From positions 10,567 through 74,566 of the forward strand of contig JBATJK010000179.1 of NCBI GenBank assembly GCA_049668445.1: a stretch of 64,000 nt of DNA, in the 5' to 3' direction. The notes under the pieces were generated by a model, which worked only from the letters and a program-made list of their open reading frames with translations, did not search any database and had not been told where the DNA came from. Source of the DNA: Gemmatimonadota bacterium. GTDB lineage: Bacteria; Gemmatimonadota; Gemmatimonadetes; Palauibacterales; Palauibacteraceae. The position numbers and the translations under genes are program-made. Below are positions 19,347 through 56,858 of the stretch, piece after piece. The first letter of the stretch is position 1; every line of letters begins with the position of its first letter.

Positions 19347-20741
19347 TCAGATCGCGGGCTTCTCGCTCAGAAGGCCCATGATCAGACGTGCCGAGGCCTC
19401 CGTCGCTCCCCGTCCGCTCTCCACGTAGCGCCGGGCCTCCCGGCCCATTTCGGCTCTGCGGCCCGGATCACCCGCAAGACCTGAGAGGATCGAAGGTACG
19501 AGGTCGGGTTCCGCCTCCACGGCGATCTCCCTCTGAACCATCTGGCGGGCCTCCCAGCGATCGTATACCGGGCCGAACAGAACGGGCAGCCCGGCCGCCG
19601 CCGGCTCGACCACGGAGTGCAGGCCCTCTCCCCCGATCCCTCCGCCGACCCAGGCCAGGTCGCACTCCAGGTACAGCTCGGCAAGGAACCCTACCGCATC
19701 CACGATCAGCGGGGGCGGCATTCCCGATCCGGGGCGGGCCGCGCCAGCCGGGGCCGGACCGGCGGACCAGAGACGTGGCTCGACTCCGAGGTGCTCCAGG
19801 CAGAGGTCGCGTATCCGCCTCACCGCCGACGCATCCGGCTCGTGGGGCACGAGAATCAGCTCCAGGTCGTCGTCCGCCCCGGTCGGCCGCGATGCCGCGA
19901 GCACAGCCGCCGCCTCGACCAGGATCCTCTCGTCCTCGGGCCACGTCGATCCTGCGCATAAACGCACCTGCCCGGACGTCCCATCCGGCAGGCGCCGACC
20001 GCTGCCGGAGCTTGCCTGCCGGGCCCGATCCACTCTCTCCAGGGCCCGTTCGAACGAGGCATCCCCCGTGACCTGGATCGCCTCCTTGCGAGTTCCCAGC
20101 AACTCGAGTCGTTCGACTTCCTCCTCGGACACCGCGCCCACGGCGTCGAGTCGACCGTAGCTCGGGACCAGGAGTTGCCGCCCGGGACCTCGCAGTCTGC
20201 TGCTGCTCGGCCGGACCGTGGCGTTGATCATCCCCAGGGGTATCTCCAGCTCCGCAGCGGCCCGTGTGAGAGCGGGCCAGGCGTCCAGCTTGGCGAACAC
20301 CATGGCGTCAGGCCGGGAGCGTTCGAGCGCCTCACGGCAGGCCGCCATAGTCTCGAGTGGAGGATATCCGGCGTAGTCCGCCGCCAGTTCGTCGAGGACG
20401 CTCTCGGCGGAGGGAGAAGAATAGCTGACCAGGAGCTGAAGGTCGGGCCTCTCCGCGCGCACACGTTCCACCACGGGGATCGCGCCGGCCAGCTCGCCCG
20501 CCGATGAGCCGTGCAGCCAGAGCAGCGGGCGGAACGGATCGCGCTCGCGCTCCGCCCAGTGCACGATATCGCCGGCGGCCGCCCGGCGACCCTCCACGGC
20601 GGCCGAAACCTTGGGGGAAGCGGCACTGAAAGCCGGAAGCAGGGGCCTCAGCGCGTTGACCGCCACGTTGTAGAGGTTCTCGAGCAGGCTCACGGGTCCT
20701 CTGGGGTCCGGTGCCCCGGCCAGGCGCCCTCTCCGGTCCAC
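19347..20741 (-). CDS. waaA: 3-deoxy-D-manno-octulosonic acid (Kdo) transferase
   Basis: N-terminal LYNVAVNALRPLLPAF and WLHGSSAGE motif characteristic of KdtA/WaaA; GT-B C-terminal half; linked to an msbA-like gene. Confidence 0.75.
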   Translation of the reverse strand: MDRRGRLAGAPDPRGPVSLLENLYNVAVNALRPLLPAFSAASPKVSAAVEGRRAAAGDIVHWAERERDPFRPLLWLHGSSAGELAGAIPVVERVRAERPDLQLLVSYSSPSAESVLDELAADYAGYPPLETMAACREALERSRPDAMVFAKLDAWPALTRAAAELEIPLGMINATVRPSSSRLRGPGRQLLVPSYGRLDAVGAVSEEEVERLELLGTRKEAIQVTGDASFERALERVDRARQASSGSGRRLPDGTSGQVRLCAGSTWPEDERILVEAAAVLAASRPTGADDDLELILVPHEPDASAVRRIRDLCLEHLGVEPRLWSAGPAPAGAARPGSGMPPPLIVDAVGFLAELYLECDLAWVGGGIGGEGLHSVVEPAAAGLPVLFGPVYDRWEARQMVQREIAVEAEPDLVPSILSGLAGDPGRRAEMGREARRYVESGRGATEASARLIMGLLSEKPAI

Positions 20742-20803
20742 TCCCGGAAGCTGTCGGGTCCCGACCGTCCACGTACTGGTTCATTATAGTACGGCAATCG
20801 TCC

Positions 20804-22003
20804 ATGTCAGGTACAGGATCGCCCCCGGTCGACCTCGACGTCGCGGACGGGACTCGCTGCACCCATCCGGGACGCGGTATCATTCTCACGGAATCGAACC
20901 CCCGTGAGGAGCGCGTGCGCTACATAGGAAACAAGACGAAGCTCGTCCCGTTTCTCCTCGAGACGATCGGCGAGCTGGACCTCGCACCGGGGGTGGCCTG
21001 CGATCCGTTCGCCGGCACCGCGAGTGTCGGGCGCGCGCTCAAGAGCACAGGCTGGCGCGTGCACTGCGGCGATCTCCTGGCGGTGTCCTACGCGTACCAG
21101 GTGGCGCGGGTCGAACTCGACCGGACCCCCCGCTATCCGGGAGTCCTCTCGGGAGGCAGCGCGAGTCGAAGAGCCATGAGCTACGGGGCCGTTCTGCGCG
21201 TACTCGAGGCTCTGCCCCCCAGGCCCGGCTTCGTCACCGAACACTATACGCCGGCCGGCGAGGACGGGCGTGAGCATGGTCGCATGTACTTCACGCCGGA
21301 GAACGGCGCCACGATCGACGCGATCCGGGATCGAATCTCGGACTGGCGCCGCGACGACCTGATCGATCATGCCGGTGCACAACTTCTGTTGGCCACCCTG
21401 ATCCAGGCCGCGGACCGGGTCGCGAACACCACCGGGGTCTACGCTTCCTTCGTGAAGACCTGGCAGCCCAACGCCACACGACGAATCCGCCTCAAGCCGT
21501 TGAGGCCGACCGTACCCCCGGCTTCCTCCGCATTGGGGTGTACGGCGTTCTGCGGACGAGCCGAGACCTTGTTGAGGAAGGCCGGACCGTTGGACCTGTT
21601 GTACCTGGACCCGCCGTACAACGAGAGGCAATATCCGGGCTACTACCACTTGCCGGAACTCCTGGCCCAGGGGTGGGAACCTCCCCCGGAGCTCCGGGGC
21701 AAGACAGGGCTGATACCGGATCGCGACCTGCGCTCCGACTGGTGCCGGCGGGGACGGTGTGAGGCCGCCCTGCGCTCGATCCTGGACCTGGCCGACGCCC
21801 GGCACGTGCTGCTCAGCTACAACGACGAGGGTCTGTTGCCGCGCGAGTTAATCGAGGATGCGTTTCGTGCGTCCGGAAACCCGGACACCTTCCGCGTGTT
21901 CACGCGCGGCTATCGGCGGTATCGCAGTGACTCCGATGGGCCCGGCCGCCGGTACAGCACGGACGCCGTCCGGGAGCGGGTGTACTACGTGAGGAAGCCG
22001 TGA
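20804..22003 (+). CDS. DNA adenine methyltransferase, Dam/D12 (alpha) class; apparent orphan
   Basis: Motif order RYIGNKTKL (D12 N-terminal motif), FxGxG DPFAGTASVG, then DPPY (LLYLDPPYNE). No restriction endonuclease gene adjacent. Alternative start GTG at 20915 (V-R-Y-I-G-N-K) with AGGAG just upstream. Confidence 0.75.
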   Translation: MSGTGSPPVDLDVADGTRCTHPGRGIILTESNPREERVRYIGNKTKLVPFLLETIGELDLAPGVACDPFAGTASVGRALKSTGWRVHCGDLLAVSYAYQVARVELDRTPRYPGVLSGGSASRRAMSYGAVLRVLEALPPRPGFVTEHYTPAGEDGREHGRMYFTPENGATIDAIRDRISDWRRDDLIDHAGAQLLLATLIQAADRVANTTGVYASFVKTWQPNATRRIRLKPLRPTVPPASSALGCTAFCGRAETLLRKAGPLDLLYLDPPYNERQYPGYYHLPELLAQGWEPPPELRGKTGLIPDRDLRSDWCRRGRCEAALRSILDLADARHVLLSYNDEGLLPRELIEDAFRASGNPDTFRVFTRGYRRYRSDSDGPGRRYSTDAVRERVYYVRKP

Positions 22004-27014: not shown

Positions 27015-27650
27015 ATGAAACAGACCACGGAAATCGACGGTTGGCTGAGCCCCAGTGTGGCCCTCGTACTTCTCGAGTCTCTGCGCGACGTGGACACTCC
27101 GCCGGAGGTGCTCGAGGACGAGGCGTTTCACATCAGCCTTCCGCGGCGTCTCGGGCTGAGCGACGTCATCGACGGGCAGATGCGACGCTACGCCGACATG
27201 CGGAAGCGAAGGCGGCAACTGGAAGCCAGTGAGTTCCTGGATCTGCTTCGGCTCATCGCTCGCCGGCCTGACGCTCGCATGGTCTTTGAGGCCGCCGGGG
27301 ACCGGCTGGGGTCGGAGTATGTCTCGCGGACCCCGCGCGCCGCGGGCTTCGCGCGGCGGCTCTCACCGGCGGGATTCCGACGGCGATCGCTTCTGCGCCA
27401 TCTGCGGCGGGTCGCAGAATCTCTCAGCCCGGGCAGTGCGATCCGGTCCGACCGGACGGACCCGTCGATTTCGGTGGCGCATTGTCTTCCAGCTGTGGCC
27501 GATGGCACCGGGTCGGCCTGCGGGATCATCACGGCTGCGTTTACGGCGTGCGCTCACGGGCTGGGCGAATCGACGCCGGTTCGTCACCCGCGCTGCGAGA
27601 GCCGGGGAGACGACCAGTGCCTGTGGGAGGTCGCACCGCTGCAGAACTAG
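27015..27650 (+). CDS. Hypothetical protein (possibly V4R-like Cys-containing C-terminus)
   Basis: ORF with a coding-like pattern beginning MKQTTEIDGW; C-terminal Cys/His cluster (CAHGLG...HPRCESRGDDQC). Family uncertain. Confidence 0.4.
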   Translation: MKQTTEIDGWLSPSVALVLLESLRDVDTPPEVLEDEAFHISLPRRLGLSDVIDGQMRRYADMRKRRRQLEASEFLDLLRLIARRPDARMVFEAAGDRLGSEYVSRTPRAAGFARRLSPAGFRRRSLLRHLRRVAESLSPGSAIRSDRTDPSISVAHCLPAVADGTGSACGIITAAFTACAHGLGESTPVRHPRCESRGDDQCLWEVAPLQN

Positions 27651-28555
27651 CCCGCCGGCGATTCTCCTCCGTCCGGCTCACGATCGACCGCGTTCCACGG
27701 CTCCACGTGAACCACGGCGACCGAGAAACCCGCACCCTCCACGAGTCGGCGCTCCACCGCATCCGCCACCTGGTGGCCCGCTTCCACGGTCAGGTCTCCG
27801 TCTACTTCTACCGTGAGTTCCACGAACGCGGCGCCCTCGAGATCCCCCCGGCTCCGCACTTCGGTCACGTCTTGAACGCCGGCCACGTCTGAGACGAAGC
27901 GATGGATCCTGGCCGCGTCGATGGCAGCCTGGTCCACGAGGGAGGGAATGGCCTGCCTGAGTATCTCCCAGCCGCTGTGGGCGATGAGAAGCGCCACGAC
28001 AATTCCGAGCCAGGCATCGGCCGCCGTCCAGCCCCGGCTCACGATGAACAGGCCCCCCAGGACCGACGCGGTGACCAACACGTCGGTGCCGGTGTGACGT
28101 GCATCAGCCTTGAGGAGCACGCTGTTGAGTCGTTTCCCCGCCCGATTCTCGGTCCACGCCACCACCACGTTGACGGCCATCGTACCCAGGAGCACGGCGA
28201 AGGTGAGGGGCTCCAGGCGGGGGGGCGCCGCATCGCCGAGCAATCTTCCGATCGCGGCGCTCACCAGTTCGAAACAGGTGATGGAGAGGAAGGCTACGAC
28301 GGCGAGCGCGCCGAGCACTTCGAACTTCGCGTGGCCGTACGGGTGCTCGTCGTCCGGTGGAGCGGACGCGGCTTTCACCGCCGCGAGGCCGACCACGTTG
28401 TTGAGCGCATCCACCCCCGAGTGAGCGGCGTCTCCGAGGACCGCCAGGGAACCCGAGCGCAGGCCGATCCAGACCTTGGCGATGATCACGGCGAGATTCG
28501 CGAGCAGAACGGCCCACAGGACCCGGCGGACGGCCGCGTGTCGGTCCGAAGTCAC
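27647..28555 (-). CDS. Cation diffusion facilitator (CDF) family divalent-metal efflux transporter
   Basis: Six TM helices with HxxxD-type metal-binding motifs (GDAAHSGVDAL; ADARHTGTDVL) and a C-terminal cytoplasmic domain. Confidence 0.85.
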   Translation of the reverse strand: MTSDRHAAVRRVLWAVLLANLAVIIAKVWIGLRSGSLAVLGDAAHSGVDALNNVVGLAAVKAASAPPDDEHPYGHAKFEVLGALAVVAFLSITCFELVSAAIGRLLGDAAPPRLEPLTFAVLLGTMAVNVVVAWTENRAGKRLNSVLLKADARHTGTDVLVTASVLGGLFIVSRGWTAADAWLGIVVALLIAHSGWEILRQAIPSLVDQAAIDAARIHRFVSDVAGVQDVTEVRSRGDLEGAAFVELTVEVDGDLTVEAGHQVADAVERRLVEGAGFSVAVVHVEPWNAVDREPDGGESPAG

Positions 28556-28779
28556 CGGTTGGACCAGCGCCCGGTGCCGGGTCTTCGGCCACTCCCCCTG
28601 CGCCGGGATCCGCCCATTCGATCCAGGAGCAGGCGGATGGGGGCCCTGCGCGGAGCCTTTGCCCCCGTGTCCTCGTAGCGCTCGTACAGGCCCGGGTAGC
28701 CCAGACCGATCCAGACACCGACTGCCAGAGCCAGCACACTCGCGACAATCAGGAGTACGAGAAAGGTCTGGTCGGTCAT
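28552..28779 (-). CDS. Small single-TM membrane protein (hypothetical, 75 aa)
   Basis: Met at 28779 preceded by GGAGA; TM FLVLLIVASVLALAVGVWIGLGY; stop overlaps the CDF start (ATGA). The longer track ORF N-terminus is likely non-coding. Confidence 0.35.
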   Translation of the reverse strand: MTDQTFLVLLIVASVLALAVGVWIGLGYPGLYERYEDTGAKAPRRAPIRLLLDRMGGSRRRGSGRRPGTGRWSNR

Positions 28780-28988: not shown

Positions 28989-30428
28989 GTGCGCGACTCC
29001 GACCTCCTTCGCTGCTCCTTCCGTCGGACTGTGAGAGCCAGCCTGGCCGTGCTGGGGCTTGCCGCTTTTGCGGGCGGCTGTGTGGACGAAGACACCGTGT
29101 ACAACGATCGGCCGTTCGGCGACGATCCGCCGGCCTCAGCCGGTGGCATGCTGGGATACGTGCAGGGACAGGCGGGAGAGCCGACGTGCGCCCAATGTCA
29201 CGCCACGCCGAGCGCGAGCTGGACCACGACGGCGCACGCCGGTGCGTGGAACACTCTTCAAGACAGCGGGCACGCGCAGGAATTCTGCGAGGCCTGCCAC
29301 GCGGTCAGTCAGCTCGGCAACGCGGCGACCGAGCCCGCCGGCTGGACGTCCACCGGGGATTCGAGGTACGTGGACGTGCAGTGCGAGGCGTGCCACGGGG
29401 CCGGTGAAACGCACGTGGCCAATCCGGAAGCCTCTCAGCCGCTGCCCTCGCTCGCGGTTGGCGCCGACCTTACGAACGGCTGCGGTGAGTGCCACAACGG
29501 CACGCACCATCCGTTCGTCGAGCAGTGGTCGTTGTCGAAGCACTCGGAGGTAGTCACTTTCGCCGCCAGTCGGCTCGAGTGCGCCGGCTGCCACCGGGGC
29601 CAGGGGACGCTGCTCGCATGGGGGGTCCGCTCCAACTACCTGGAGCGGGACTCTGAGGAGCCCCTCGCGGTCGTATGCGGCGTCTGTCATTCGATGCACG
29701 ACAACACGTTCGAGGGTCAGCTCAGGTTCCCGGTCCAGACGCCGGACGTCGAGGTTCACCTTTGCGCGCGGTGCCATAACCGGCGTTCCGTCGCGGATCC
29801 CAACTCCAGTCACGGCCTCGAGCCGCACGCTCCGGAGACGGCACACCTGGTGGGCGAGTCCGGCTGGGTACCCCCCGGATCGGGACTGGCCCTTGGTTCG
29901 ATCAGCATGACGCACGGATCGCCAAGCAATGAGAAGCTGTGCGCAACCTGCCACGTGGCCATGTACACGGTCACGGATCAGGCCACGGGGGAATTCGAGT
30001 TCCAGGCCGTTGGGCACACGTTCGAGTCAATCCCCTGCGTGGACGAGAGCGGTATCCCGAACGGCGAAGCGGACTGCGCCGTCGATGCCGGTGCCCGATC
30101 GTTCGCTGGCTGCGTGACCTCGGGCTGTCACTCGACCGCAGAATCCGCCGCCGCACTCCTGAACCTCCGGGCCGACAACATCGCGCTTCAGGTGGCGGTC
30201 CTGCTCGACCTGCTGGAGCAGGTGGATCCCAATCTCGATGAACCGGGTGGTGAGATCGACGCCACCGTCGCGACGTTCACCGTCGCCGAGGGCGGCTTCT
30301 TCAACTACAGCCTGGCGACCCATGGAGGCGACGTGTACGGGTCCACGACGCACAACGCTCCGTGGATGAGGGCGTTGCTGGAGGCCAGCATCACAGCGGT
30401 GCAGGACGAGTATGGAGTGAGTCCGTAA
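28989..30428 (+). CDS. Multiheme c-type cytochrome lipoprotein (8 canonical CxxCH plus one CxxxxCH)
   Basis: GTG start at 28989 after an AGGAGA RBS; lipobox LAVLGLAAFAGGC; heme motifs CAQCH, CEACH (x2), CGECH, CAGCH, CGVCH, CARCH, CATCH and an atypical CVTSGCH. Confidence 0.8.
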   Translation: MRDSDLLRCSFRRTVRASLAVLGLAAFAGGCVDEDTVYNDRPFGDDPPASAGGMLGYVQGQAGEPTCAQCHATPSASWTTTAHAGAWNTLQDSGHAQEFCEACHAVSQLGNAATEPAGWTSTGDSRYVDVQCEACHGAGETHVANPEASQPLPSLAVGADLTNGCGECHNGTHHPFVEQWSLSKHSEVVTFAASRLECAGCHRGQGTLLAWGVRSNYLERDSEEPLAVVCGVCHSMHDNTFEGQLRFPVQTPDVEVHLCARCHNRRSVADPNSSHGLEPHAPETAHLVGESGWVPPGSGLALGSISMTHGSPSNEKLCATCHVAMYTVTDQATGEFEFQAVGHTFESIPCVDESGIPNGEADCAVDAGARSFAGCVTSGCHSTAESAAALLNLRADNIALQVAVLLDLLEQVDPNLDEPGGEIDATVATFTVAEGGFFNYSLATHGGDVYGSTTHNAPWMRALLEASITAVQDEYGVSP

Positions 30429-30481
30429 GGGAGGGTTCTCTCGCAGGCACTACCCGGCGGCGACGCTCTCCGGGCCGAGAC

Positions 30482-30530
30482 AAACGAAAGACCCGCGGAA
30501 GCCACTGGCCTCCGCGGGTCTCTTGTTTCG
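30482..30530. terminator. Bidirectional rho-independent terminator between convergent cytochrome genes
   Basis: GACCCGCGGA-agccactggcc-TCCGCGGGTC stem-loop flanked by an A-tract (caaacgaaa) and a T-tract (tcttgttt). Confidence 0.6.
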
Positions 30531-30579
30531 GGAGAGGTCGTTTCCGCTCTCTCCTGTTCCGTTTACTGGCGTCCGACGA

Positions 30580-30969
30580 TCAGCCGGCCGCCACGTGGCA
30601 CATGGTGCACGTGGCGTCTGCCCGCCCTTCGTGGCTGGCGGGAGCCGCAGGCATCCCTTCCATCGCACCCGAATGGCACATGGCGCAGGCCTCACGTCCA
30701 GCGATCTCGTGCGGAGTCGCCGAAGCGGCACCGGTCTGCATCTCCGAGTCGGCGGCATGGCACAACAGGCACGTGTCCAGCTCTCGACCCTCGTGGTCCG
30801 CCGGGTTGGCCGGGATCCCTTCCATGGCACCGGAATGGCACATGGTACAGTTCTCCTTGCCCGCCAGGTCGTGCGACACGACCGTCGGCTTCTCCTGCGC
30901 AAACGCTGGAGCCGCGGCAAGCGCCACGAACAGCGCCGTACCGGCAGCAATCGACATTAGACGGTTCAT
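30580..30969 (-). CDS. Small periplasmic tetraheme c-type cytochrome with an internal tandem duplication
   Basis: Signal peptide MNRLMSIAAGTALFVALAAAPAFA; four CxxCH (CTMCH, CLLCH, CAMCH, CTMCH); two 33-aa repeats CxMCHSGAMEG(I/M)PAxPAxHEGR...C..CH, also visible as a DNA-level repeat. GGAGA RBS. Confidence 0.75.
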   Translation of the reverse strand: MNRLMSIAAGTALFVALAAAPAFAQEKPTVVSHDLAGKENCTMCHSGAMEGIPANPADHEGRELDTCLLCHAADSEMQTGAASATPHEIAGREACAMCHSGAMEGMPAAPASHEGRADATCTMCHVAAG

Positions 30970-31243
30970 ACGAGCTCTCCTTTGAGTTTGCTTACCTTCC
31001 CGCGGCCGCTCTCTACCGCGTAAAACAAGCACGTATATGATAGTTTACACCGGTCGCTATCGCGAGTCTCACCCTATTGGACACCAGTGCAACGTCCACT
31101 GTTTGAATCCGTGGCGACTCGCATGTTCCGCCGCGCCGTTGACGAAACCGAAGTAGCCACAACGCAACGGTTTCGCGGCACGAAAGGTGCTGTGACTGAT
31201 GGGTGAAGCGCTCCCCTCGCTTCACATACATCGGAGACTCGTC

Positions 31244-33250
31244 ATGCTCCTCCAACGACCCCCAATCGCTCGTTGGCTGATGATGCTCACGTGCGTCCTC
31301 CTGTCGGCCTCGCCGTTCGCTCCGCCGCTTCGCGCCCAGGAGACGACCGACGATCCAAACCGCACCTGCTACATGTGCCACGGCGACCCTGAGAACTTCG
31401 CGAACCGGGAGGACGGCCAGCGACTCATCGTGACACAGGACGAATTCGCCGGCTCAGTGCACGGTGGTTTCGGGTTCGCGTGCACGACGTGCCACCGCGA
31501 CTTCGCCTTTCCGCACCCGGAGGAATACGTGCCCGTGCGGTGCGGCGCCTGTCACGGTTCCGAGGACCGGCAGTACGGCGAGAGCGTGCACGGATATGCC
31601 CTGGCGCGTGCCAACGAACGAGCTCCGACGTGCGCCGGGTGTCACGGAAAGCACGACATACGCCGAAGCGACGACCCGGAAAGCCACACCTATCACACGC
31701 GCGTCGCGGAGACCTGCACGGACTGCCACAGCACCGCCGGACTGCTCACGGACCAGTATCTGAAGCTGCCGTCGCCCGCTGCTCAGTTCGCTCAGTCCGT
31801 CCACGGCGAAGCCGGTGAGGCCGGCGACATGGGCGCCGCGACGTGTACAGACTGTCACGGCGTTCACGATCTCAGGGGACACAACGACCCCCTCTCGCGC
31901 ATCAATCGGTTGAACGTCTCTGAAACCTGCGGTGCCTGCCACCAGGAGATCACCACCGACTACGACCGGTCGATTCACGGGCGGGCGCTGGCGGCCGGAA
32001 TCGGCGACAGCCCCACGTGCACCGATTGCCACGGCGAGCACCTGATCCTGCATCCGTCCGACCCGGACGCCGGAACGCACGCCAATCACATGGCGGCTGA
32101 CCTGTGCGGCGATTGCCACGACGATCCGGTGATCGTGGCCAAGTACAGTCTTCGAGACGACGTGGTCCACTCGTACGCCGACAGCTACCACGGGTGGGCG
32201 ACCGGACGAAACCACGAGCATGCGGCCACGTGCGTGAGTTGCCATACGGCTCACCTGGTGCTGCCGACGGCCGACCCGGAGTCGTCGGTCTCCGAGGCGA
32301 ACGTGGTCGCCACGTGCCAGCAATGCCACGAAGGAGCGAGCGCGGAGTTCGCCGCCTCGTACGACCACGCCGCGGCTTCCGCGGCCACGAACAAGGGCCG
32401 ACGGATCGTCACCGCCCTCTACATCGGACTCATCATCGTGGTGATCGGAGGCATGGCACTCCACAACGCGCTCATTCTCAACTACTACCTGGTCGAGAAG
32501 CGACGAAGGGAACGGCAGGAGCGCGGCGTCGTGCGGTTCGACAAGATCCAGATCGTGCAGCATATGACGCTGGCCGTGTCATTCATCCTGCTCGTGATCA
32601 CCGGGTTCGCCCTGCGCTACCCTGATACCCTATGGGTGAAGTGGACGGGACTCACCTTCCTCAGCGAGCCGGTTCGGTCGTGGAGCCACCGAATCCTCGG
32701 AGTCGGCCTGATCCTGTTCTCGGTCGTTCATGTCCTCTACATCCTGTTCGCCCGCCGCGGACGCGACGAGTTCAAGGCCATGCTGCCGAACTTCCAGGAT
32801 CTGAAGGACTTCATCGACAACATGCGCTTCCACACGTGGGGCACGAAGCGCAAACCGCGCTTCGGACGCTACGACTACACGCAGAAGGCGGAGTACTGGG
32901 CCCTCGTTTGGGGTACCGCCCTGATGGCCATCACCGGGCTGGTACTATGGTTCCCGGTTCTGGCCACCACGTGGGCTCCGGCCTGGGTGGTCTCCATCTC
33001 GGAGACGATCCACTTCTACGAGGCCTGGCTGGCGATGCTGGCGATCGTGGTGTGGCACTTCTTCTTCGTCATGGTGCACCCGGATGTCTATCCGATGAGC
33101 TGGATCTGGCTCACCGGGAAGATGCCCGAGCACGAGGTGCAGGCCGTACACGGCCGCTGGTACGATGAGGAAGTCCAGGACATGCTCGACGCGCTTCCGC
33201 CGGGTGAAACGACGGCGGGGCTACCGGACCGTCGAGCCGACGCAGGCTGA
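31244..33250 (+). CDS. Fusion protein: periplasmic 11-heme c-type cytochrome + C-terminal diheme cytochrome b membrane domain (HydC/FdnI/Ni-hydrogenase cyt b-like; CbcL-like)
   Basis: Signal peptide; 11 CxxCH motifs; C-terminal five TM helices with conserved His ligands (ALHNAL, VQHMTL, HRILG...VVHVLY, WHFFFVMVHP). GGAGA RBS before the Met at 31244. Confidence 0.8.
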   Translation: MLLQRPPIARWLMMLTCVLLSASPFAPPLRAQETTDDPNRTCYMCHGDPENFANREDGQRLIVTQDEFAGSVHGGFGFACTTCHRDFAFPHPEEYVPVRCGACHGSEDRQYGESVHGYALARANERAPTCAGCHGKHDIRRSDDPESHTYHTRVAETCTDCHSTAGLLTDQYLKLPSPAAQFAQSVHGEAGEAGDMGAATCTDCHGVHDLRGHNDPLSRINRLNVSETCGACHQEITTDYDRSIHGRALAAGIGDSPTCTDCHGEHLILHPSDPDAGTHANHMAADLCGDCHDDPVIVAKYSLRDDVVHSYADSYHGWATGRNHEHAATCVSCHTAHLVLPTADPESSVSEANVVATCQQCHEGASAEFAASYDHAAASAATNKGRRIVTALYIGLIIVVIGGMALHNALILNYYLVEKRRRERQERGVVRFDKIQIVQHMTLAVSFILLVITGFALRYPDTLWVKWTGLTFLSEPVRSWSHRILGVGLILFSVVHVLYILFARRGRDEFKAMLPNFQDLKDFIDNMRFHTWGTKRKPRFGRYDYTQKAEYWALVWGTALMAITGLVLWFPVLATTWAPAWVVSISETIHFYEAWLAMLAIVVWHFFFVMVHPDVYPMSWIWLTGKMPEHEVQAVHGRWYDEEVQDMLDALPPGETTAGLPDRRADAG

Positions 33251-33274
33251 TACCGGGCAGGCCGATTGCCCCCC

Positions 33275-33308
33275 GGGTCGGGCAACCCCCGACCCACGGG
33301 TTGTTGTG
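33275..33308 (+). terminator. Putative intrinsic terminator after the first cytochrome c/b fusion gene
   Basis: GGGTCGGG-caacc-CCCGACCC hairpin followed by GTTGTTGTG; a lower-GC 200-bp intergenic region follows, presumably the promoter of the next gene. Confidence 0.4.
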
Positions 33309-33511
33309 CCCACGAGCGTTGTGTCATTCTGACCCATTCCGAGTCCTTATCACGGTTCGGCAAGACTTGGACACACGCATATCTCGTTGTTCGGTGTAGC
33401 TTTGCCGAATTGTGTCCAGTTCTTGCAGGTTGTTCGTGCGGCGTTGCGGGTCTCAGCATTCGGGGTCCGCTCCGCCCTCGTGTAGGGACGACCACTCCTT
33501 CCGGAGGTCCA

Positions 33512-36322
33512 ATGCGGATTCGGAAGTTCAGAATAGCGAAGCGACTGACCCCGCTGGCCGCTGCGGCCACGCTCTTGATATTGGCGGCCCCTGCCGCCGC
33601 GCAGGAAGTCAACTGTCTGATGTGTCACGAGAACCCGGCGTTCTTCCAGAGCCAGGAGAACGGCGAGCGCCTCGTGGTCACCCAGGAATCGCTGTCGGGC
33701 TCGGTACATGGCAGCCTTCGTTGCCAGGACTGTCACGCGGGACTCGAGTTCCCACACCAGGCAGACGCCCCGGCGCCCAGTTGCGGGCAGTGCCACGGGA
33801 GACAGTCGCGCCAACACCAGCAGTCGCTGCACGGGCAGGCCGCCGCCCGCGGCGATGCGCTCGCACCGGAATGCGAGGACTGTCACGGCACGCACGAGAT
33901 CCTGTCGAGTCGGGAGTTGGCTTCGCCGACATCGGTGATGAACATCCCGATCCTGTGCGGCGAATGTCACCAGGAAGGCACGGAGGTATCGGAGCGAATA
34001 GACATTCCGCAGGACAGCATCCTGCACAACTACTCCCTGTCCATCCACGGGGCCGGCCTGTTCGAGCGCGGCCTGTCGGTGACCGCCGTATGCACTTCCT
34101 GCCACACGTCGCACTTCATCCTTCCGCACACGGATCCCCGCTCGAGCATCCACGTGGACAACGTCGCCGGGACGTGCATGGCATGTCACGCGCGGATCGA
34201 GGAAGTGCACACGCAGGTGATCGAAGGGCGACTGTGGGAAGAACAGCCCCATATGATCCCGGCTTGCGTGGACTGTCATGAGCCGCACGAGATTCGTCGC
34301 GTGTTCTACGATGCGGGGGTCGCGAACGCGGACTGCCTGGCCTGCCACTCCGATCCGGAACTCATGGGCACGGATTTCGACGGAAACAGCGTCTCGATGT
34401 TCGTGGACGAGGGCCCTTACAGCCTGGGGGCGCATCAGGGTACGACGTGCGCGCAGTGCCACACCGACGTGAGCGTCGCGTACGAGGAGCGTCCTTGCGA
34501 GACCCTCTCCTCGGCGGTCGACTGCGCGATCTGCCACGCCGGACCGGTCTCCGAGTACCAGGCCAGCAGCCACGGCACACTGGCCGCGGAGGGTGTGACC
34601 GACGCTCCCACGTGCCTGGATTGCCACGAGAAACACGCCACGGGGGACAACGACAATCCGACCTCGCCGACGTATGCCCGGAACGTCCCCGAGCTGTGCT
34701 CTACCTGCCACCGCGAAGGGGAAGCGGCGGCCCAACGCATCCAGCGCGAGGGCGCCGACATCGTCGCGGGCTACGAGATGAGCATCCACGGCAAGGGACT
34801 GCTTGAGAGCGGACTCGTGGTCACGGCCACCTGCAGCGACTGCCACGGACCTCACTCGGAGCTTCCGGCCAGCGACTCGACTTCGAGGGTCAATCCGAAC
34901 AACGTCGCCGCCACCTGCGGACAGTGTCACCACGGGATCGAGGAGACGTTCCGCGAGAGCGTCCACTATCCGGAGAACGGGCTCTACACGGCCGAAAGCG
35001 AGCACCAGTATCCTACCTGCGAGGACTGCCACACCTCGCACACGATCGGTCGGACGGACCGGGATGATTTCCGGATGCTCATGATGAGCCAGTGCGGGCG
35101 CTGCCACGAGGACGAGTCCGAGACGTTCTTCGAGACGTACCACGGCAAGGTCTCACGCCTGGGCGGAGCGCGGGCGGCCAAGTGCTATGACTGCCACGGA
35201 ACACACAACATCCTCCCGAATTCGGAGGTTGGTTCGACCCTCAGTCGTGACAACATCCTGGAGACGTGCGCGCAGTGTCACCCGGCCGCGAACGAGAAGT
35301 TCACGGGTTACCTGACGCATGCCACGCACCACGATCCGGACAAGTACCCGTGGCTCTTTCTCGCCTTCTGGGCCATGACGGGCCTGTTGGTCAGCGTGCT
35401 CACTTTCTCGCTCATCCACACCGGCGCATGGCTGTACCGCCTGTGGCGCGAGCCGGAGCACTGGAAGGGCCACGTCGAGGCCGTGGGCGAGGAGCGAAAG
35501 CAGCTCTATCGCCGGTTCACACAACGGCAGCGGATCATGCACCTGGTGATGTTGCTCAGTTTCATGCTGCTGGCCGCGACCGGCATGGCTCTCAAGTTCG
35601 CGTGGATGGGTTGGGCCAAGCTGTTCTCGCGAATGGTCGGCGGATTCGAGGCGATGGGCATCCTGCACCGCCTGGGGGCCGTGGCGCTGATTACCCTTTT
35701 CATCGTTCACCTGGTGGACGTGCGCAAACAGAAGCGCTCGGCCGGGCAGACGTGGAAGGAGTACATCTTCTCCCGAGACTCGCTGATGTTCAACAAGAAC
35801 GACGGACGCGAGTTCGTGGCCTCCATCAAGTGGTTCTTCGGTAAGGGAGAACGACCGAACTACGGCCGCTTCACCTACTGGGAGAAGTTCGATTACTTCG
35901 CCGTCTTCTGGGGGATGTTCATCATCGGCTCCACTGGACTGTTCCTGTGGTTCCCGGAGCTCTTCACGACCGTGCTGCCCGGGTGGTTCGTGAACGTGGC
36001 CACGATCATCCACAGCGATGAGGCGCTGCTGGCAGTGGCGTTCATCTTCACCATCCACTTCTTCAACACGCACTTCCGCCTGGACAAGTTCCCCATGGAT
36101 CCCGTGATCTTCACGGGCCGGGTTCCACTGGAGGAGCTGAAGCGCGACAAGCCGATGGAGTACGAGCGCATGAAGGCGGAAGGAAAGCTGGAAGAGCGGC
36201 TGGTCGATCCGCTTCCGAAGGAATTCGAGACTACCGTTCGCATCTTCGGCTTCACGATGCTCGCGATCGGGCTCACGATCGTGGGGCTCATTCTGTACAC
36301 GATGCTGTTCGGCTACAGATAG
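33512..36322 (+). CDS. Fusion protein: periplasmic 19-heme c-type cytochrome + C-terminal diheme cytochrome b membrane domain (paralog of 31244..33250)
   Basis: GGAGG RBS; signal peptide MRIRKFRIAKRLTPLAAAATLLILAAPAAAQE; 19 CxxCH; C-terminal TM domain with His ligands. N-terminal region is homologous to the upstream paralog (CLMCHENPAFFQSQENGERLVVTQES... vs CYMCHGDPENFANREDGQRLIVTQDE...). Confidence 0.8.
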   Translation: MRIRKFRIAKRLTPLAAAATLLILAAPAAAQEVNCLMCHENPAFFQSQENGERLVVTQESLSGSVHGSLRCQDCHAGLEFPHQADAPAPSCGQCHGRQSRQHQQSLHGQAAARGDALAPECEDCHGTHEILSSRELASPTSVMNIPILCGECHQEGTEVSERIDIPQDSILHNYSLSIHGAGLFERGLSVTAVCTSCHTSHFILPHTDPRSSIHVDNVAGTCMACHARIEEVHTQVIEGRLWEEQPHMIPACVDCHEPHEIRRVFYDAGVANADCLACHSDPELMGTDFDGNSVSMFVDEGPYSLGAHQGTTCAQCHTDVSVAYEERPCETLSSAVDCAICHAGPVSEYQASSHGTLAAEGVTDAPTCLDCHEKHATGDNDNPTSPTYARNVPELCSTCHREGEAAAQRIQREGADIVAGYEMSIHGKGLLESGLVVTATCSDCHGPHSELPASDSTSRVNPNNVAATCGQCHHGIEETFRESVHYPENGLYTAESEHQYPTCEDCHTSHTIGRTDRDDFRMLMMSQCGRCHEDESETFFETYHGKVSRLGGARAAKCYDCHGTHNILPNSEVGSTLSRDNILETCAQCHPAANEKFTGYLTHATHHDPDKYPWLFLAFWAMTGLLVSVLTFSLIHTGAWLYRLWREPEHWKGHVEAVGEERKQLYRRFTQRQRIMHLVMLLSFMLLAATGMALKFAWMGWAKLFSRMVGGFEAMGILHRLGAVALITLFIVHLVDVRKQKRSAGQTWKEYIFSRDSLMFNKNDGREFVASIKWFFGKGERPNYGRFTYWEKFDYFAVFWGMFIIGSTGLFLWFPELFTTVLPGWFVNVATIIHSDEALLAVAFIFTIHFFNTHFRLDKFPMDPVIFTGRVPLEELKRDKPMEYERMKAEGKLEERLVDPLPKEFETTVRIFGFTMLAIGLTIVGLILYTMLFGYR

Positions 36323-36470
36323 CCGATCACACAGCGGGGGCGGGCGCTTCCGGCTCCGCATTCTCGAGACCGGCCGGCGGGCTTGATCCAGTCCGCCCGG
36401 CCGGCCATGTTTCATGGAGCCGTCCAGGAAGCTCCGTGACAGGTAACCTCAAGCGCGTCGGAGCAGGACC

Positions 36471-37925
36471 ATGACTGTCCATCGCCGGCCGTTCTTCTCG
36501 TTTCTCGCGTGCGCCATGGTGTGGCTGCCCTCTGCGGCCCAGGCCCAGGGCATACGCGGAGACGTGAGACTCAACTGGGGCTGGATGCAGCTCCAACCGT
36601 TCGCACAGGACTCGGTCCCCGAGGGCGATGTCTCGGGGTCGGGCCTCCAGCGGCAATTGGCGAACGGGACCGTGGTGTCGTGCATCGAGGGCGATTACTG
36701 CCGCTGGTACGAGAACAACGGCCAGCGCCAGGACATCATGCCCTTCACGCAGGACCTGCGATTCGCCGGGTGGACCGGCGTCCAGGGTCTTTCGTTCCAC
36801 GGGCAGATGCGCACGCGCCTGGGCAGTGACGACCTGTGGCCGCGCACCGATCAGAAGTTCGACCTCCTCACGGGCTACCTGAGCTACAATCGCTCGGCTT
36901 TCCAGATCAAAGCCGGCCGGATGTACAGGGCATCGGGACTCGGCTACTACAACTTCGACGGCGCGTCCGCCGTGTGGCGTGGACTCGGATGGCTGTGGGT
37001 CGAGGGATATGCCGGCTGGAGCCTGGCGCGTGGCGTCAACGCACCGCGGAACGGCAGCCTGTACCAGGATGCCGATCTCCTGGCCACGGACCGACGCGGC
37101 TATCTCTTTGGTGGCGAGCTCGGCTTCCGTGGCGGCAAGGTGTTCTCCGGCTCGGCGACCTACCAGCGCGAGCTCCGCACCGATGAGCTGGCCCTCTATT
37201 CGGAGAGGGCAGCGGTAGACCTCAGGGCCCTCGTGGGCGGCTGGGCATTCGATGGCGGAGCCAGCTACGACTTCGCGTACGACCAGCTCAACGACGCTCG
37301 AGTCCGGATCACGACGCCGCAGGTGCTGGGGATCAAGTTTGCCGCTCAGGCCAGGCACTACACCCCGTTCTTCGACTACTGGACCATCTGGAGCGCCTTC
37401 TCTCCCGTCGGCTTCAACGAGGGGCGCCTTTCAGGCACCTGGACCTCCAGGAGCCTCCCGCTGCTCGTCGAGCTCGGCGGGGCGTACCGCGAGTACGAAG
37501 ACACGAACGCGGGCCCCTCGAACACCACCATCCGCAAAGACGGCTACCGTGGCTTCGGCCGGATCTACTGGAGCCCGGACAAGTGGTACGTGGACGCCCG
37601 CTACCGCGCGGAAGACGGATTCGGAGGCTCCCGGTACGGTGGCGACCTGGTCCTGGGCCGCTACCTGGCCACGGGCTCTGCCTCCTACGTGGCCCTGCGA
37701 GGCACCGCGACGGAGACCCTGTACGAGTTCCGAGAGGGTGAGCGTTACGTGGTTGGCGGCGCCGTCGAAGGATCGTACGACATCACCAAGGCCAACCTGA
37801 CGCTCGACGCCAGCCTCGGTTTCTACCAGATCGAAGACAAGAACCGGCCCCTGGCCGATACCTGGACAGAAGGGCGCGCGAGCGTAGGATTGCGCTGGCG
37901 CTTCAACACTGGAGGTACCCGATGA
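36471..37925 (+). CDS. Putative outer-membrane beta-barrel (porin-like) protein
   Basis: Signal peptide ending AAQAQG; alternating amphipathic beta-strand pattern rich in Y/G/W throughout; aromatic residue near the C-terminus (RWRF); stop overlaps the start of the downstream cytochrome gene. Confidence 0.55.
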   Translation: MTVHRRPFFSFLACAMVWLPSAAQAQGIRGDVRLNWGWMQLQPFAQDSVPEGDVSGSGLQRQLANGTVVSCIEGDYCRWYENNGQRQDIMPFTQDLRFAGWTGVQGLSFHGQMRTRLGSDDLWPRTDQKFDLLTGYLSYNRSAFQIKAGRMYRASGLGYYNFDGASAVWRGLGWLWVEGYAGWSLARGVNAPRNGSLYQDADLLATDRRGYLFGGELGFRGGKVFSGSATYQRELRTDELALYSERAAVDLRALVGGWAFDGGASYDFAYDQLNDARVRITTPQVLGIKFAAQARHYTPFFDYWTIWSAFSPVGFNEGRLSGTWTSRSLPLLVELGGAYREYEDTNAGPSNTTIRKDGYRGFGRIYWSPDKWYVDARYRAEDGFGGSRYGGDLVLGRYLATGSASYVALRGTATETLYEFREGERYVVGGAVEGSYDITKANLTLDASLGFYQIEDKNRPLADTWTEGRASVGLRWRFNTGGTR

Positions 37926-38869
37926 GGCGGCTCGCTTACCTGGGCGCCCTCGTTCTGACGGTCGGCGCCGGAGCGCTGTTCGCGGCCTCCCGTGGATCTT
38001 TCGACTTCCCGCACGAAAAACACGCGGCCCTTGGTGGGGCCGGGTGTGAGAGTTGCCACGCGGGCATCTACTCCGGAGACGCCGCGAGCAACGTCTCGGT
38101 TGACCCGGCACTGTGCTCGGGATGCCATAACGGACAGGCGTTCCCCGAGGTGGGGTACACGGGATACAAACCGCAGGAAAGTGGCCTGAAGTTCCAGCAT
38201 GCCACGCACCCGAAGCTCGGCTGCCAGAACTGCCACGGCGTTCCCGGCGGCGAGGGCGACATGGCCGTTCAGGCCGCATCGGGAGACACGTGCCTGGCCT
38301 GCCACGGCAACGGGGCGACCGACCATTTCGAGGTCGGCATCAACCCGTGCGAGACCTGTCACTACGATCCGGCGCCCGGGCACACGCCTGACTTCATGAC
38401 GCAGCATGCGACGGCGGCAGCAGCGGGACTCCCGAACTGCACGCAGTGCCACAGGGAAACGTTCTGCGTCGACTGCCACGACGGCCCGACGAACCCGGGT
38501 ACGCAGTACCATCCGGCGAACTTCGTCACCCGCCACAGCGCGGAGTCGTGGGCCGCTCCGATGGAGTGCTCCGAGTGCCATTCGAGGGAGGTCTTCTGCC
38601 GCGACTGCCACTCGAACCAGGGAGTCGCGCAGGATGGCAGCCAGAACGGTGGCTACCACGACGGAGTGGCAAACTGGCTGCAGCAGCACGGCGCGGCCGC
38701 GCGGCAGGGCATGGAAAGTTGCACCACCTGCCACCAGCAGACCGAGTGCCTGGCCTGTCACTCGGCCAGGGAAGGATGGCGCGTGAATCCGCACGGACCG
38801 GACTTCGATCCCCAGCGGGCGTCCGACCGCAGCACGCAGTCGTGCGCAATCTGTCACACGGGATACTGA
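37922..38869 (+). CDS. 12-heme c-type cytochrome (secreted), translationally coupled to the beta-barrel gene
   Basis: Signal peptide MRRLAYLGALVLTVGAGALFAASRG; 12 CxxCH in 315 aa; ATGA start/stop overlap with the upstream gene. Confidence 0.8.
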   Translation: MRRLAYLGALVLTVGAGALFAASRGSFDFPHEKHAALGGAGCESCHAGIYSGDAASNVSVDPALCSGCHNGQAFPEVGYTGYKPQESGLKFQHATHPKLGCQNCHGVPGGEGDMAVQAASGDTCLACHGNGATDHFEVGINPCETCHYDPAPGHTPDFMTQHATAAAAGLPNCTQCHRETFCVDCHDGPTNPGTQYHPANFVTRHSAESWAAPMECSECHSREVFCRDCHSNQGVAQDGSQNGGYHDGVANWLQQHGAAARQGMESCTTCHQQTECLACHSAREGWRVNPHGPDFDPQRASDRSTQSCAICHTGY

Positions 38870-38896
38870 TTTCGGACCATTTGGAACCCATAGCAT

Positions 38897-38937
38897 GAGG
38901 GGCCGCAGCCAAGATGGCTGGGGCCCCTCTGTCGTTC
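38897..38937 (+). terminator. Putative intrinsic terminator ending the cytochrome cluster
   Basis: GAGGGGCCGCAGCC-aagat-GGCTGGGGCCCCTC hairpin (one mismatch) followed by TGTCGTT. Confidence 0.5.
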
Positions 38938-38992
38938 AGCCCTCCAGATCCCGCCACCTGCCGGAGGCCCGGCTAGAAGCCCTTCGAGCCGA

Positions 38993-55712: not shown

Positions 55713-56858
55713 TTATCTCAGGACTGCTGCGATACCGGTCTCCGTCGGAATCTTCGCGCCCGGTAGTACCAGCGCCCTGCCACCGTGCTGGATCGTCACC
55801 TCCGCCAGTTCGTCGAGCAGGTCGACCGCGTCACCGCCCGGATCCGTACCGCCTTCGCCGATGATCTCGATGTCGCCCGACGATCGGTCGAACCGGCCCC
55901 ACACCGTACGTCCCTTCTCCGTCAGCAGAAGCCTGATCCGACCCGCGACCGCGAGTTGGGCGATGGCCGCCAGCTCAGACTCCGTCTTGCCCCGGCCATA
56001 GGATCTTTCCCACAGCTCGAGCGCGATGTCCAGCTTGTCCTCCACGGATTTCTGAGCGATCGGCCAGGCTGCCGCGTGGATTCTGCCCTCGTCCCATCCG
56101 GAAACGTTTCCGACGATGCCCTCGTCGACCAGGTTCTCCAGCTTGCTCACGCTGTGGTAGATCGGATGGTAGTAGTCCACCGCGGCGAGGATGATCGGGC
56201 CGATTTCATCTGCCAGGAGTTCCCGGACGCCCGCGTCCACGGCTCGGAAGAACTTCTCCAGCTCCTGCTTCGTGTCGTCCTTGCCGGCCCCGTGCCCGTG
56301 GAAGACAGGTGCCGAGCCTCGCCCGCGGGGACTGCGGAGATTGAGGCGGTCCACCACCACCTCGGCTCCGAGAGCTTCCTGCAGACTGCCGGGAACCGTG
56401 GCCAGGTCGACCGGTGCCATCTCTGAGATGGAACCCTCCCACAAGCGGACTTCCTTCTGGGTCACGGAGAGGACCCAGAAGCGTTCGGGCGCCTGCAGGA
56501 ACTCGATCAGGGGCCTGGTATGAAAGGTCGGTCCCACGACGACCATGTCGGGCATCTGCACCGGCAGGCGATAGAGGCGTCCGAAGTCGCGGGAAGCAAA
56601 CAGAGCCAGGCCATCGGCCTGGTGGCGCCAGAAGTCCTGGTCTCCAATCAGGGCCTCGAGCGGGGCCAGGACGTCGTCGACACCGTCCGCGCCATCATCC
56701 GAGAGGATTCCCCTCGCCTCGTCGATGGCGGCCCTCAGACGCAGGGGTTGAGCGGCTACCTCGGCTCCCCTGCGGTGAGTTTCCATGTAGATCGAGACGG
56801 CGGGAGCCGTGTCGATCTGAAACAGTTCTTTGAGTTGATCTCTTCCGAAGTAATCCAC
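55713..56858 (-). CDS. Hypothetical protein; possible bacterial eRF1-like (baeRF) family member
   Basis: 381-aa ORF with a coding-like pattern; central region HGHGAGKDDTKQELEKFFRAVD loosely reminiscent of eRF1/Pelota-like domains. Family assignment tentative. Confidence 0.45.
   Translation of the reverse strand: MDYFGRDQLKELFQIDTAPAVSIYMETHRRGAEVAAQPLRLRAAIDEARGILSDDGADGVDDVLAPLEALIGDQDFWRHQADGLALFASRDFGRLYRLPVQMPDMVVVGPTFHTRPLIEFLQAPERFWVLSVTQKEVRLWEGSISEMAPVDLATVPGSLQEALGAEVVVDRLNLRSPRGRGSAPVFHGHGAGKDDTKQELEKFFRAVDAGVRELLADEIGPIILAAVDYYHPIYHSVSKLENLVDEGIVGNVSGWDEGRIHAAAWPIAQKSVEDKLDIALELWERSYGRGKTESELAAIAQLAVAGRIRLLLTEKGRTVWGRFDRSSGDIEIIGEGGTDPGGDAVDLLDELAEVTIQHGGRALVLPGAKIPTETGIAAVLR

Follow-up and report, generated by a model that had tools for sequence, protein, structure and literature searches.

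A cluster of six genes at positions 28989-38869 of a 64,000-nucleotide stretch of Gemmatimonadota DNA was found to encode what is probably a cell-envelope-spanning porin-cytochrome electron conduit, wired to the quinone pool and most likely running outward. The stretch belongs to contig JBATJK010000179.1 of assembly GCA_049668445.1; it is called the window here, and all positions are counted from its first letter. The genes were labeled G1 to G6 in coordinate order, and the cluster and its hairpins are as follows.

28989-30428, plus strand: G1, a nonaheme lipoprotein cytochrome and candidate outer-surface electron exit, with eight CxxCH motifs and one CX4CH motif
30482-30528, between the convergent G1 and G2: a hairpin with 23-nt arms, with a 17-pair stem followed by a T-run
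30580-30969, minus strand: G2, a 129-aa secreted tetraheme cytochrome of the c3/c7 type and candidate periplasmic carrier, with four CxxCH motifs
31199-33250, plus strand: G3, a fusion of an 11-heme c domain with a diheme cytochrome b of the FdnI/HydC type, with 11 CxxCH motifs
33512-36322, plus strand: G4, a fusion of a 19-heme c domain with a cytochrome b of the FdnI type, with 19 CxxCH motifs
36471-37925, plus strand: G5, a predicted 484-aa plugless outer-membrane beta-barrel of an unannotated family, with no heme motif
37922-38869, plus strand: G6, a secreted 315-aa 12-heme cytochrome of the c7 type and candidate barrel-threaded wire, with 12 CxxCH motifs
38897-38929, between G6 and a convergent peptidase gene: a hairpin with 15-nt arms, the likely terminator of the G3-G6 unit

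Six-frame translation of the cluster gave 54 CxxCH motifs and one CX4CH motif. This total of 55 agrees with a first-pass annotation of the same DNA, which had placed six genes at these positions and counted about 55 heme motifs. Of all the CxxCH-coding sites in the 64 kb, 54 out of 56 fall in the 10 kb of the cluster (six-frame scan), so their concentration is not due to chance. The hairpin between G1 and G2 is likely a bidirectional terminator, and since hairpins stand at both convergent junctions, the transcription units appear to be G1, G2 (in reverse), and G3-G4-G5-G6. The annotation had described the cluster as bracketed by terminators and provided with internal promoters, and it had listed the small tetraheme gene, whose four motifs were recovered, leaving unsaid that this gene lies on the minus strand as a unit of its own. 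The terminator claim proved partly right, in that strong hairpins occupy the two convergent junctions. The internal promoters found no support, as sigma-70-like sites matched the chance level (1 found compared to 1.0 expected from shuffles) and the single site lies inside G5. No FNR/CRP-like boxes were found in the region upstream of G1 or in those upstream of G2 and G3.

The outer-membrane part of the proposed conduit is the product of G5. An AlphaFold2 model built from a 51-sequence alignment (pLDDT 85.4; pTM 0.75) consists of a signal peptide followed almost entirely by beta-strand, with approximately 22-24 long strands and no plug domain. This confident model supports the earlier proposal of a beta-barrel at this gene and speaks against the alternative of a soluble protein. 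The best structural matches were TonB-dependent receptors, ushers, and MtrB (Foldseek; FimD, TMq 0.44-0.48; MtrB, E 2.4e-6). It was noted that these top matches all hold a polypeptide in the lumen, and that an empty barrel of this size would be a leak, which suggests to us that the modeled lumen houses a resident partner. G5 had no match in Pfam or NCBIfam, and its family profile had none among PDB sequences at E <= 10. The family is compact: among 1.84 billion representatives it accounts for 536 clusters at 50% identity. By these Pfam, NCBIfam, and PDB sequence searches it is set apart as an undescribed family of predicted outer-membrane barrels that is spread through the phylum. We also observed a 40-residue insert between early barrel strands (G5 residues 51-91) that contains an invariant cysteine pair, C71 and C77. 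The pair recalls the N-terminal CXXC motif of MtrB, which is functionally required there.

The candidate for the resident partner is G6, whose start codon overlaps the stop codon of G5 as ATGA. Relatives were collected by a scan of one genome per species, taxonomy was taken from the best 80 loci, and the six proteins were mapped onto 81 fetched loci. A multiheme G6 homolog follows G5 in 79 of these 81 loci, across an identity span of 36-95%, and the stop and start codons overlap in 77 (ATGA or GTGA in 67, TGATG in 10). The earlier claim that the barrel gene is coupled by ATGA to a secreted 12-heme cytochrome was thereby confirmed and found to extend to related loci. Because the overlap has been kept over the whole 36-95% range, it provides strong indirect evidence that G5 and G6 co-assemble as a stoichiometric complex, in which G6 would be seated in the G5 lumen.

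G6 itself carries a Sec-type signal peptide and no lipobox. Its 12 CxxCH motifs and 12 additional histidines are all invariant across 53 sequences, enough for bis-histidine ligation of all 12 hemes, and its density is approximately 24 residues per heme. The homologs possess 12 hemes in the lineage of the window and 16 in most others. When the G6 family profile was compared with the PDB, the closest match was GSU1996 (3OV0; E 6.9e-17), followed by HmcA (E about 1e-9); ActA was also matched, and MtrA (6R2Q_A) only at E 1.9e-4. From this ranking, and from a score far below cut-off against the DmsE/MtrA model TIGR03508 (22.5 bits; cut-off 192.2), G6 appears to be a modular wire of the c7/c3 type and not an MtrA homolog. 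With 12 hemes and these scores, its assignment as a decaheme MtrA/DmsE was rejected. GSU1996 is of nearly the same build (318 aa and 12 hemes, compared to 315 aa and 12 hemes), HmcA has the 16 hemes seen in most G6 homologs, and both share the c7/c3-type modularity. However, both are periplasmic and have no coupled barrel gene, and it is mostly the N-terminal third of the G6 profile that aligns to them.

G3 and G4 would provide the link to the quinone pool. Both contain the PF01292 domain (prokaryotic cytochrome b561 / Ni_hydr_CYTB) above the gathering cut-off of 30.1 bits, with 77.2 bits in G3 (E 1.7e-21) and 39.7 bits in G4. The b domain of G3 aligns to Escherichia coli FdnI (1KQF_C; E 7.7e-8), where the b-heme ligands His18, His57, and His155 coincide exactly and His169 is offset by one residue, and alignment of G3 with G4 showed that the four b-heme histidine positions are kept between them. 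Hydropathy scans placed five transmembrane helices in G3 and six in G4 (five plus one amphipathic, histidine-bearing helix), in each case after a heme domain that is led by a signal peptide. The two proteins are paralogous, and by alignment G4 corresponds to G3 with two inserted tetraheme modules. The true start of G3 is probably 31244 or 31280, according to alternative gene calls.

By their architecture, G3 and G4 are members of the CbcL/MtrH/MtoC family and putative quinol/quinone modules. They share with it the N-terminal periplasmic multiheme domain, the C-terminal b domain of the HydC/FdnI type, the 5-6 transmembrane helices, the conserved b-heme histidines, and the heme spacing. Zhong and Shi (PMC6295460) catalogued this family across 15 phyla, with 3-23 hemes and 416-1034 residues, and MAF27600.1, a 951-aa protein of Gemmatimonadetes in their table, has 19 CxxCH motifs and six transmembrane helices. 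The heme positions of G4 match those of MAF27600.1 one for one, at an offset of 17-22 residues, and an 11-heme Lacunisphaera protein in the same catalogue is spaced like G3. The two inner-membrane fusions of multiheme c and b domains, with 11 and 19 hemes, that the annotation had proposed are thus real. Its remark that the larger one is unusually large was not upheld, since the catalogue reaches 23 hemes and already holds a 19-heme Gemmatimonadetes protein; in this respect the fusions are not new either. They differ from the catalogued family in standing as two tandem paralogs directly upstream of an outer-membrane module, and from Geobacter CbcL, which has 9 hemes, in their heme number. More than 4100 G4 homologs were found; the top 120 share at least 58% identity, and all the named ones are Gemmatimonadota. 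G4 is a candidate for a periplasm-spanning wire anchored in the inner membrane.

The remaining two cytochromes are more variable. G1 carries the lipobox LAAFAGGC (an alternative start lies at 29031), and among 36 homologs the lipobox cysteine is present in 34 and the CX4CH motif in 31, the rest having a ninth CxxCH instead. The homologs also share a conserved cysteine pair and nine invariant histidines outside the motifs, which fits bis-histidine ligation of all nine hemes. The nine heme motifs and the conserved lipobox agree with the 9-heme lipoprotein cytochrome of the first-pass annotation, and its placement at the surface would be consistent with them. Pfam matches of G1 were to MtrC/MtrF_II-IV and Cytochrome_C554. 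In phmmer searches it matched OcwA (6I5B; E 2.2e-8) in short segments, mainly over residues 48-178, and OmhA (6QVM; E 6.5e-3). OcwA of Thermincola potens has nine hemes like G1, and the similarity is local, over the N-terminal heme modules of G1. OcwA and OmhA (Carboxydothermus ferrireducens) are surface terminal reductases of monoderm metal reducers and are attached to the cell wall or S-layer, whereas G1 would be a diderm lipoprotein that aligns to them only in part and whose nine hemes all appear to be bis-histidine ligated. G1 homologs were found upstream of the barrel in many loci.

G2 has four CxxCH motifs and four other histidines, a signal peptide that ends in AFAQE, and a duplicated diheme unit, and it matched Cytochrome_C7 and Cytochrom_CIII in Pfam. 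About 15 related loci have a G2 homolog within the cluster, often on the opposite flank of G6. Compared to the nearest relative (locus L009), identity is 95% for G5 and for G6, 94% for the b domain of G4, 81% for G1, and 74% for G2. A group of sister Palauibacterales loci (L012-L020 and L072), in which G5 is 76-94% identical, is without G1 and G2. These loci carry 9-heme and 21-heme genes upstream, and 4-heme (approximately 400 aa), 9-heme, and 8-heme (242 aa) genes downstream; G3 and G4 are only about 68-72% identical in most of them, rising to about 88% in L015-L017. This pattern suggests a mosaic of modules arranged around a conserved barrel-wire core.

We then considered how the module is distributed. 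G5 relatives were found in 365 species genomes, and the best 80 loci are nearly all labeled Gemmatimonadota; one is labeled Eiseniibacteriota and one Akkermansiaceae. The latter (L016, contig CAXMRU010000218.1) carries the cluster with an 82% identical G5 in a metagenome-assembled genome (MAG) assigned to Akkermansiaceae (Verrucomicrobiota), and is most likely a mis-binned Gemmatimonadota contig. Named homologs came from Gemmatimonadota, the "marine benthic group", Candidatus Palauibacterales, and Candidatus Benthicola marisminoris, and the segment from the 3' end of G3 through G6 was also found on a 6.5-kb contig of the NCBI MAG GCA_049665475.1. The window itself lies within a 95.7-kb JGI metagenome contig. 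The host is a marine-sediment, Palauibacterales-related Gemmatimonadota bacterium.

Where a locus extends far enough upstream, the barrel-wire pair is in most cases accompanied by an inner-membrane multiheme module. Loci without G3 and G4 encode, between the G1 homolog and G5, a protein of 590-700 aa that carries 17-21 hemes and has transmembrane helices at its N-terminus, so these loci too possess an inner-membrane module. Its N-terminus has sub-threshold similarity to NapC/NirT (L007:8089-10041 and about 40 loci, e.g. L014, L026, L043, and L053), and it may combine a different kind of inner-membrane quinol module with a long wire in one protein. At least four lineages have NiFe uptake hydrogenase genes next to the module, and approximately six have ccm genes there. 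In L007:13312-16987, as in L026, L066, and L082, the small and large NiFe hydrogenase subunits and a cytochrome b are encoded beside the module. Some lineages have a complete ccm heme-maturation operon upstream (ccm genes at L007:424-6471). The adjoining hydrogenases offer hints of H2-driven extracellular respiration.

What was observed comprises the gene content, the heme and ligand motifs, the cytochrome b fold with its histidines, the barrel fold, the phylum-wide synteny, and the G5-G6 coupling; from these we infer the protein locations, a complex of G5 and G6 (with or without G1), a G4-G6 contact, the substrate, and the direction in which electrons flow. In the proposed conduit, menaquinol would be oxidized at the FdnI-type diheme b domains of G3 and G4, and the electrons would enter their periplasmic 11- and 19-heme c domains and reach G6 either directly or through G2. 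G6, inside the lumen of the plugless G5, would cross the outer membrane, and the electrons would exit via G1 to an acceptor outside the cell, for example an electrode, a partner cell, humic matter, or a mineral of Fe(III) or Mn(IV). For Geobacter, Jimenez Otero et al. 2018 (PMC6148476) recognize conduits by three parts, namely a multiheme cytochrome in the periplasm, a beta-barrel in the outer membrane, and a redox lipoprotein; at the level of motifs and models, G6, G5, and G1 correspond to all three, the location of G1 being no part of this match. Much more tentatively, we put forward a phylum-specific, hard-wired version in which G4 spans the periplasm and docks directly on the 12- or 16-heme wire in the new barrel family. 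One path of approximately 42 hemes (two b, then 19, 12, and 9 c) would then run from the quinol site to the surface without a soluble carrier, and mineral or partner respiration would be widespread in the phylum.

Several points weigh against the conduit as proposed. The lipobox is the single pointer to surface exposure of G1, and neither G1 nor G2 is a fixed partner of the pair, as the sister loci with 76-94% identical G5 use other cytochromes. G5 has no sequence link to MtrB/PioB, and G6 is nearest to the periplasmic cytochromes GSU1996 and HmcA and not to the barrel-threaded MtrA. The G6 structure model is good for residues 1-130 only (mean pLDDT 63.5), with a poor C-terminal half, and a Foldseek search of this model against the PDB gave no meaningful fold match. 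Bis-histidine wires and CbcL-type modules can run both ways, which leaves outward flow weakly favored. To our knowledge, extracellular electron transfer (EET) is not known from any cultured Gemmatimonadota, and the Palauibacterales genome paper makes no mention of these cytochromes.

The closest known parallels are found in Geobacter. The G. sulfurreducens conduits ExtABCD/ExtEFG and OmbB-OmaB-OmcB (Pcc) likewise cluster a barrel with one or more lipoprotein cytochromes, and the Ext systems include a periplasmic dodecaheme cytochrome (ExtA, ExtG). Their barrels have 18-21 predicted strands, compared to approximately 22-24 in G5. Non-orthologous swapping of surface components and the occasional adjacency of hydrogenase genes are further shared traits. 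The components of the Geobacter conduits share no homology with each other, form a conserved core with variable outer parts, a pattern also seen here, and include extEFG within a hydrogenase transcription unit (PMC6148476). In contrast to Geobacter, the barrel gene here comes first and overlaps the gene of the wire, the candidate surface protein resembles OcwA, and the barrel shares its operon with two inner-membrane modules of the CbcL type. Geobacter cbcL is located elsewhere in the genome. The Geobacter decaheme model NF041028 gave weak sub-threshold matches only. The first-pass comparison with the logic of Geobacter Pcc/Cbc systems stands for architecture and composition, and does not extend to demonstrated homology.

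The cluster is not of the Mtr family (MtrCAB/MtoAB/PioAB) as judged from its protein sequences, and is similar in working principle to Geobacter Ext/Pcc and Shewanella Mtr. G5 was rejected as an MtrB/PioB because it matched neither Pfam MtrB_PioB nor the NCBIfam MtrB/PioB models; MtrB has 26 strands, and G5 matches 22-24-strand barrels better structurally. Two-gene versions with a porin and a 12-14-heme cytochrome occur in Anaeromyxobacter and Kuenenia. Lineage-specific porin-multiheme cytochrome clusters have been described in Acidobacteriota and Verrucomicrobiota (bioRxiv 10.64898/2026.05.27.727921), and PCC3/PCC4 in Fe(II) oxidizers (PMC5566968). Like the present cluster, these are conserved, syntenic combinations of a porin and multiheme cytochromes, unlike Mtr/Omc in sequence and inferred from genomes. 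They differ in phylum and in protein families, with no mention of Gemmatimonadota, and PCC3/PCC4 has another, five-helix transmembrane protein in the inner membrane. In the literature we found no description of the Gemmatimonadota barrel-wire module beyond the CbcL-family catalogue entry and generic porin-cytochrome surveys.

A rival reading is that the same hardware runs inward, taking up electrons from a cathode, a syntrophic partner, Fe(II), or reduced minerals; G3 and G4 would then be MtoC-like quinone reductases that feed oxygen or nitrate respiration. We consider this unlikely. Reducers of Fe(III) and oxidizers of Fe(II) both have members of the CbcL/MtrH/MtoC family, and sequence does not separate the two directions (PMC6295460); Palauibacterales are predicted to be facultative aerobes and denitrifiers (Palauibacterales genome paper). 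Pairs of a porin and a periplasmic multiheme cytochrome that have no dedicated surface cytochrome are typical of oxidizers (MtoAB/PioAB), and in the present loci only the G5-G6 pair forms an invariant core. However, G1 resembles the terminal reductases OcwA and OmhA, and the uptake hydrogenase beside the module in several genomes, being an electron donor system, fits an acceptor-side conduit better. Because of these two features outward flow is mildly favored. The window shows no Cyc2, cbb3-linked, or carbon-fixation genes near the cluster, and none of the three points is decisive.

Respiration of a soluble substrate in the periplasm is improbable. G1 would in that case be an enzyme like NrfA, OTR, or HAO, acting on nitrite, hydroxylamine, sulfite, or tetrathionate and fed by G2-G4, and G5 would be an ordinary porin. 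The Cytochrome_C554 match of G1 would suit such a role, as would the weak sub-threshold matches of G3 and G4 to NrfB models. OcwA is itself related to the NrfA/OTR fold family. However, no CxxCK motif occurs in the cluster, and each of the nine G1 hemes has a conserved candidate sixth histidine, so that no obviously open catalytic heme is left. No characterized nitrite, hydroxylamine, or sulfite reductase family of NCBIfam reached or came near its cut-off for any of the six proteins. For these reasons a catalytic reductase operon for nitrite, hydroxylamine, or sulfite was rejected. A plugless barrel of approximately 22-24 strands is also far larger than a solute porin, and the strict coupling of G5 to a 12- or 16-heme cytochrome would be left unexplained. 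A chance grouping of unrelated genes for cytochromes and an outer-membrane protein that form no functional unit, suggested by the separate transcription units of G1 and G2 and by their replacement with other cytochromes in sister genomes, is most improbable given the G5-G6 overlap kept in 77 of 81 loci down to 36% identity, the recurrence of G1 homologs and an inner-membrane multiheme module beside the pair across the phylum, and the confinement of heme motifs to the 10 kb of the cluster.

Gemmatimonadota are a major phylum of obscure physiology, abundant in soils, marine sediments, and sponges, and few have been cultured. The description of Palauibacterales raised possible metal respiration from a hydrogenase only, and the conserved module, if it is a conduit, would give this idea a concrete genetic basis. 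At least 365 species-level genomes contain the module, which is linked to quinone-pool modules and in some cases neighbors an uptake hydrogenase. If the proposed conduit is real, a new barrel family would join the small set of outer-membrane electron conduits. The 484-aa barrel, the 315-aa 12-heme wire, and the 19-heme membrane-anchored fusion would also serve as compact parts in tests of how the periplasm is bridged by long multiheme wires. Metagenomes could be surveyed for EET potential with G5 as the marker gene, which the tools now in use annotate as "hypothetical". The design is known, and what is new is a Gemmatimonadota version with an undescribed barrel family, which should surprise specialists only moderately; the ecological relevance of the finding is solid.

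As to the genomic setting, GC content is flat across the window, and the flanks consist of housekeeping genes, including GyrA, UvrA, KdtA (Kdo transferase), and LeuRS. The flanking genes CDF, LeuRS, DPP-IV, BNR, fumarase, proline dehydrogenase, and baeRF recur around the cluster in distant relatives. These three features indicate that the cluster is chromosomal and vertically inherited, and they rule out a mobile or horizontally acquired island. The Kdo transferase gene in the window also fits an outer membrane that bears lipopolysaccharide. Rfam and tRNA scans detected no RNA genes in the window.

Further observations concern the neighborhood of the cluster. Divergent from G1, a CDF-family cation-efflux gene and a 75-aa open reading frame (ORF) lie on the minus strand (27647-28779), and this pair also adjoins the cluster in L009, L031, and L042. 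The CDF gene could encode an Fe2+/Mn2+ exporter relevant to metal respiration, or could reflect mere conserved synteny with LeuRS. Sites resembling TTGAT-N4-ATCAA (at most 2 mismatches) occur 19 times in the window, compared to an expectation of 7.3 from shuffles. Many of these sites contain GATC, and the intergenic regions of the cytochrome cluster are free of them. A gene for a D12-class adenine methyltransferase is located at 20711-22003. The plus-strand segment 5068-7206 contains a 712-aa ORF with no Pfam match. Finally, a bacterial eRF1-like protein of the baeRF family is encoded on the minus strand at 55713-56858 and was also encountered downstream of the cluster in the distant relative L008.

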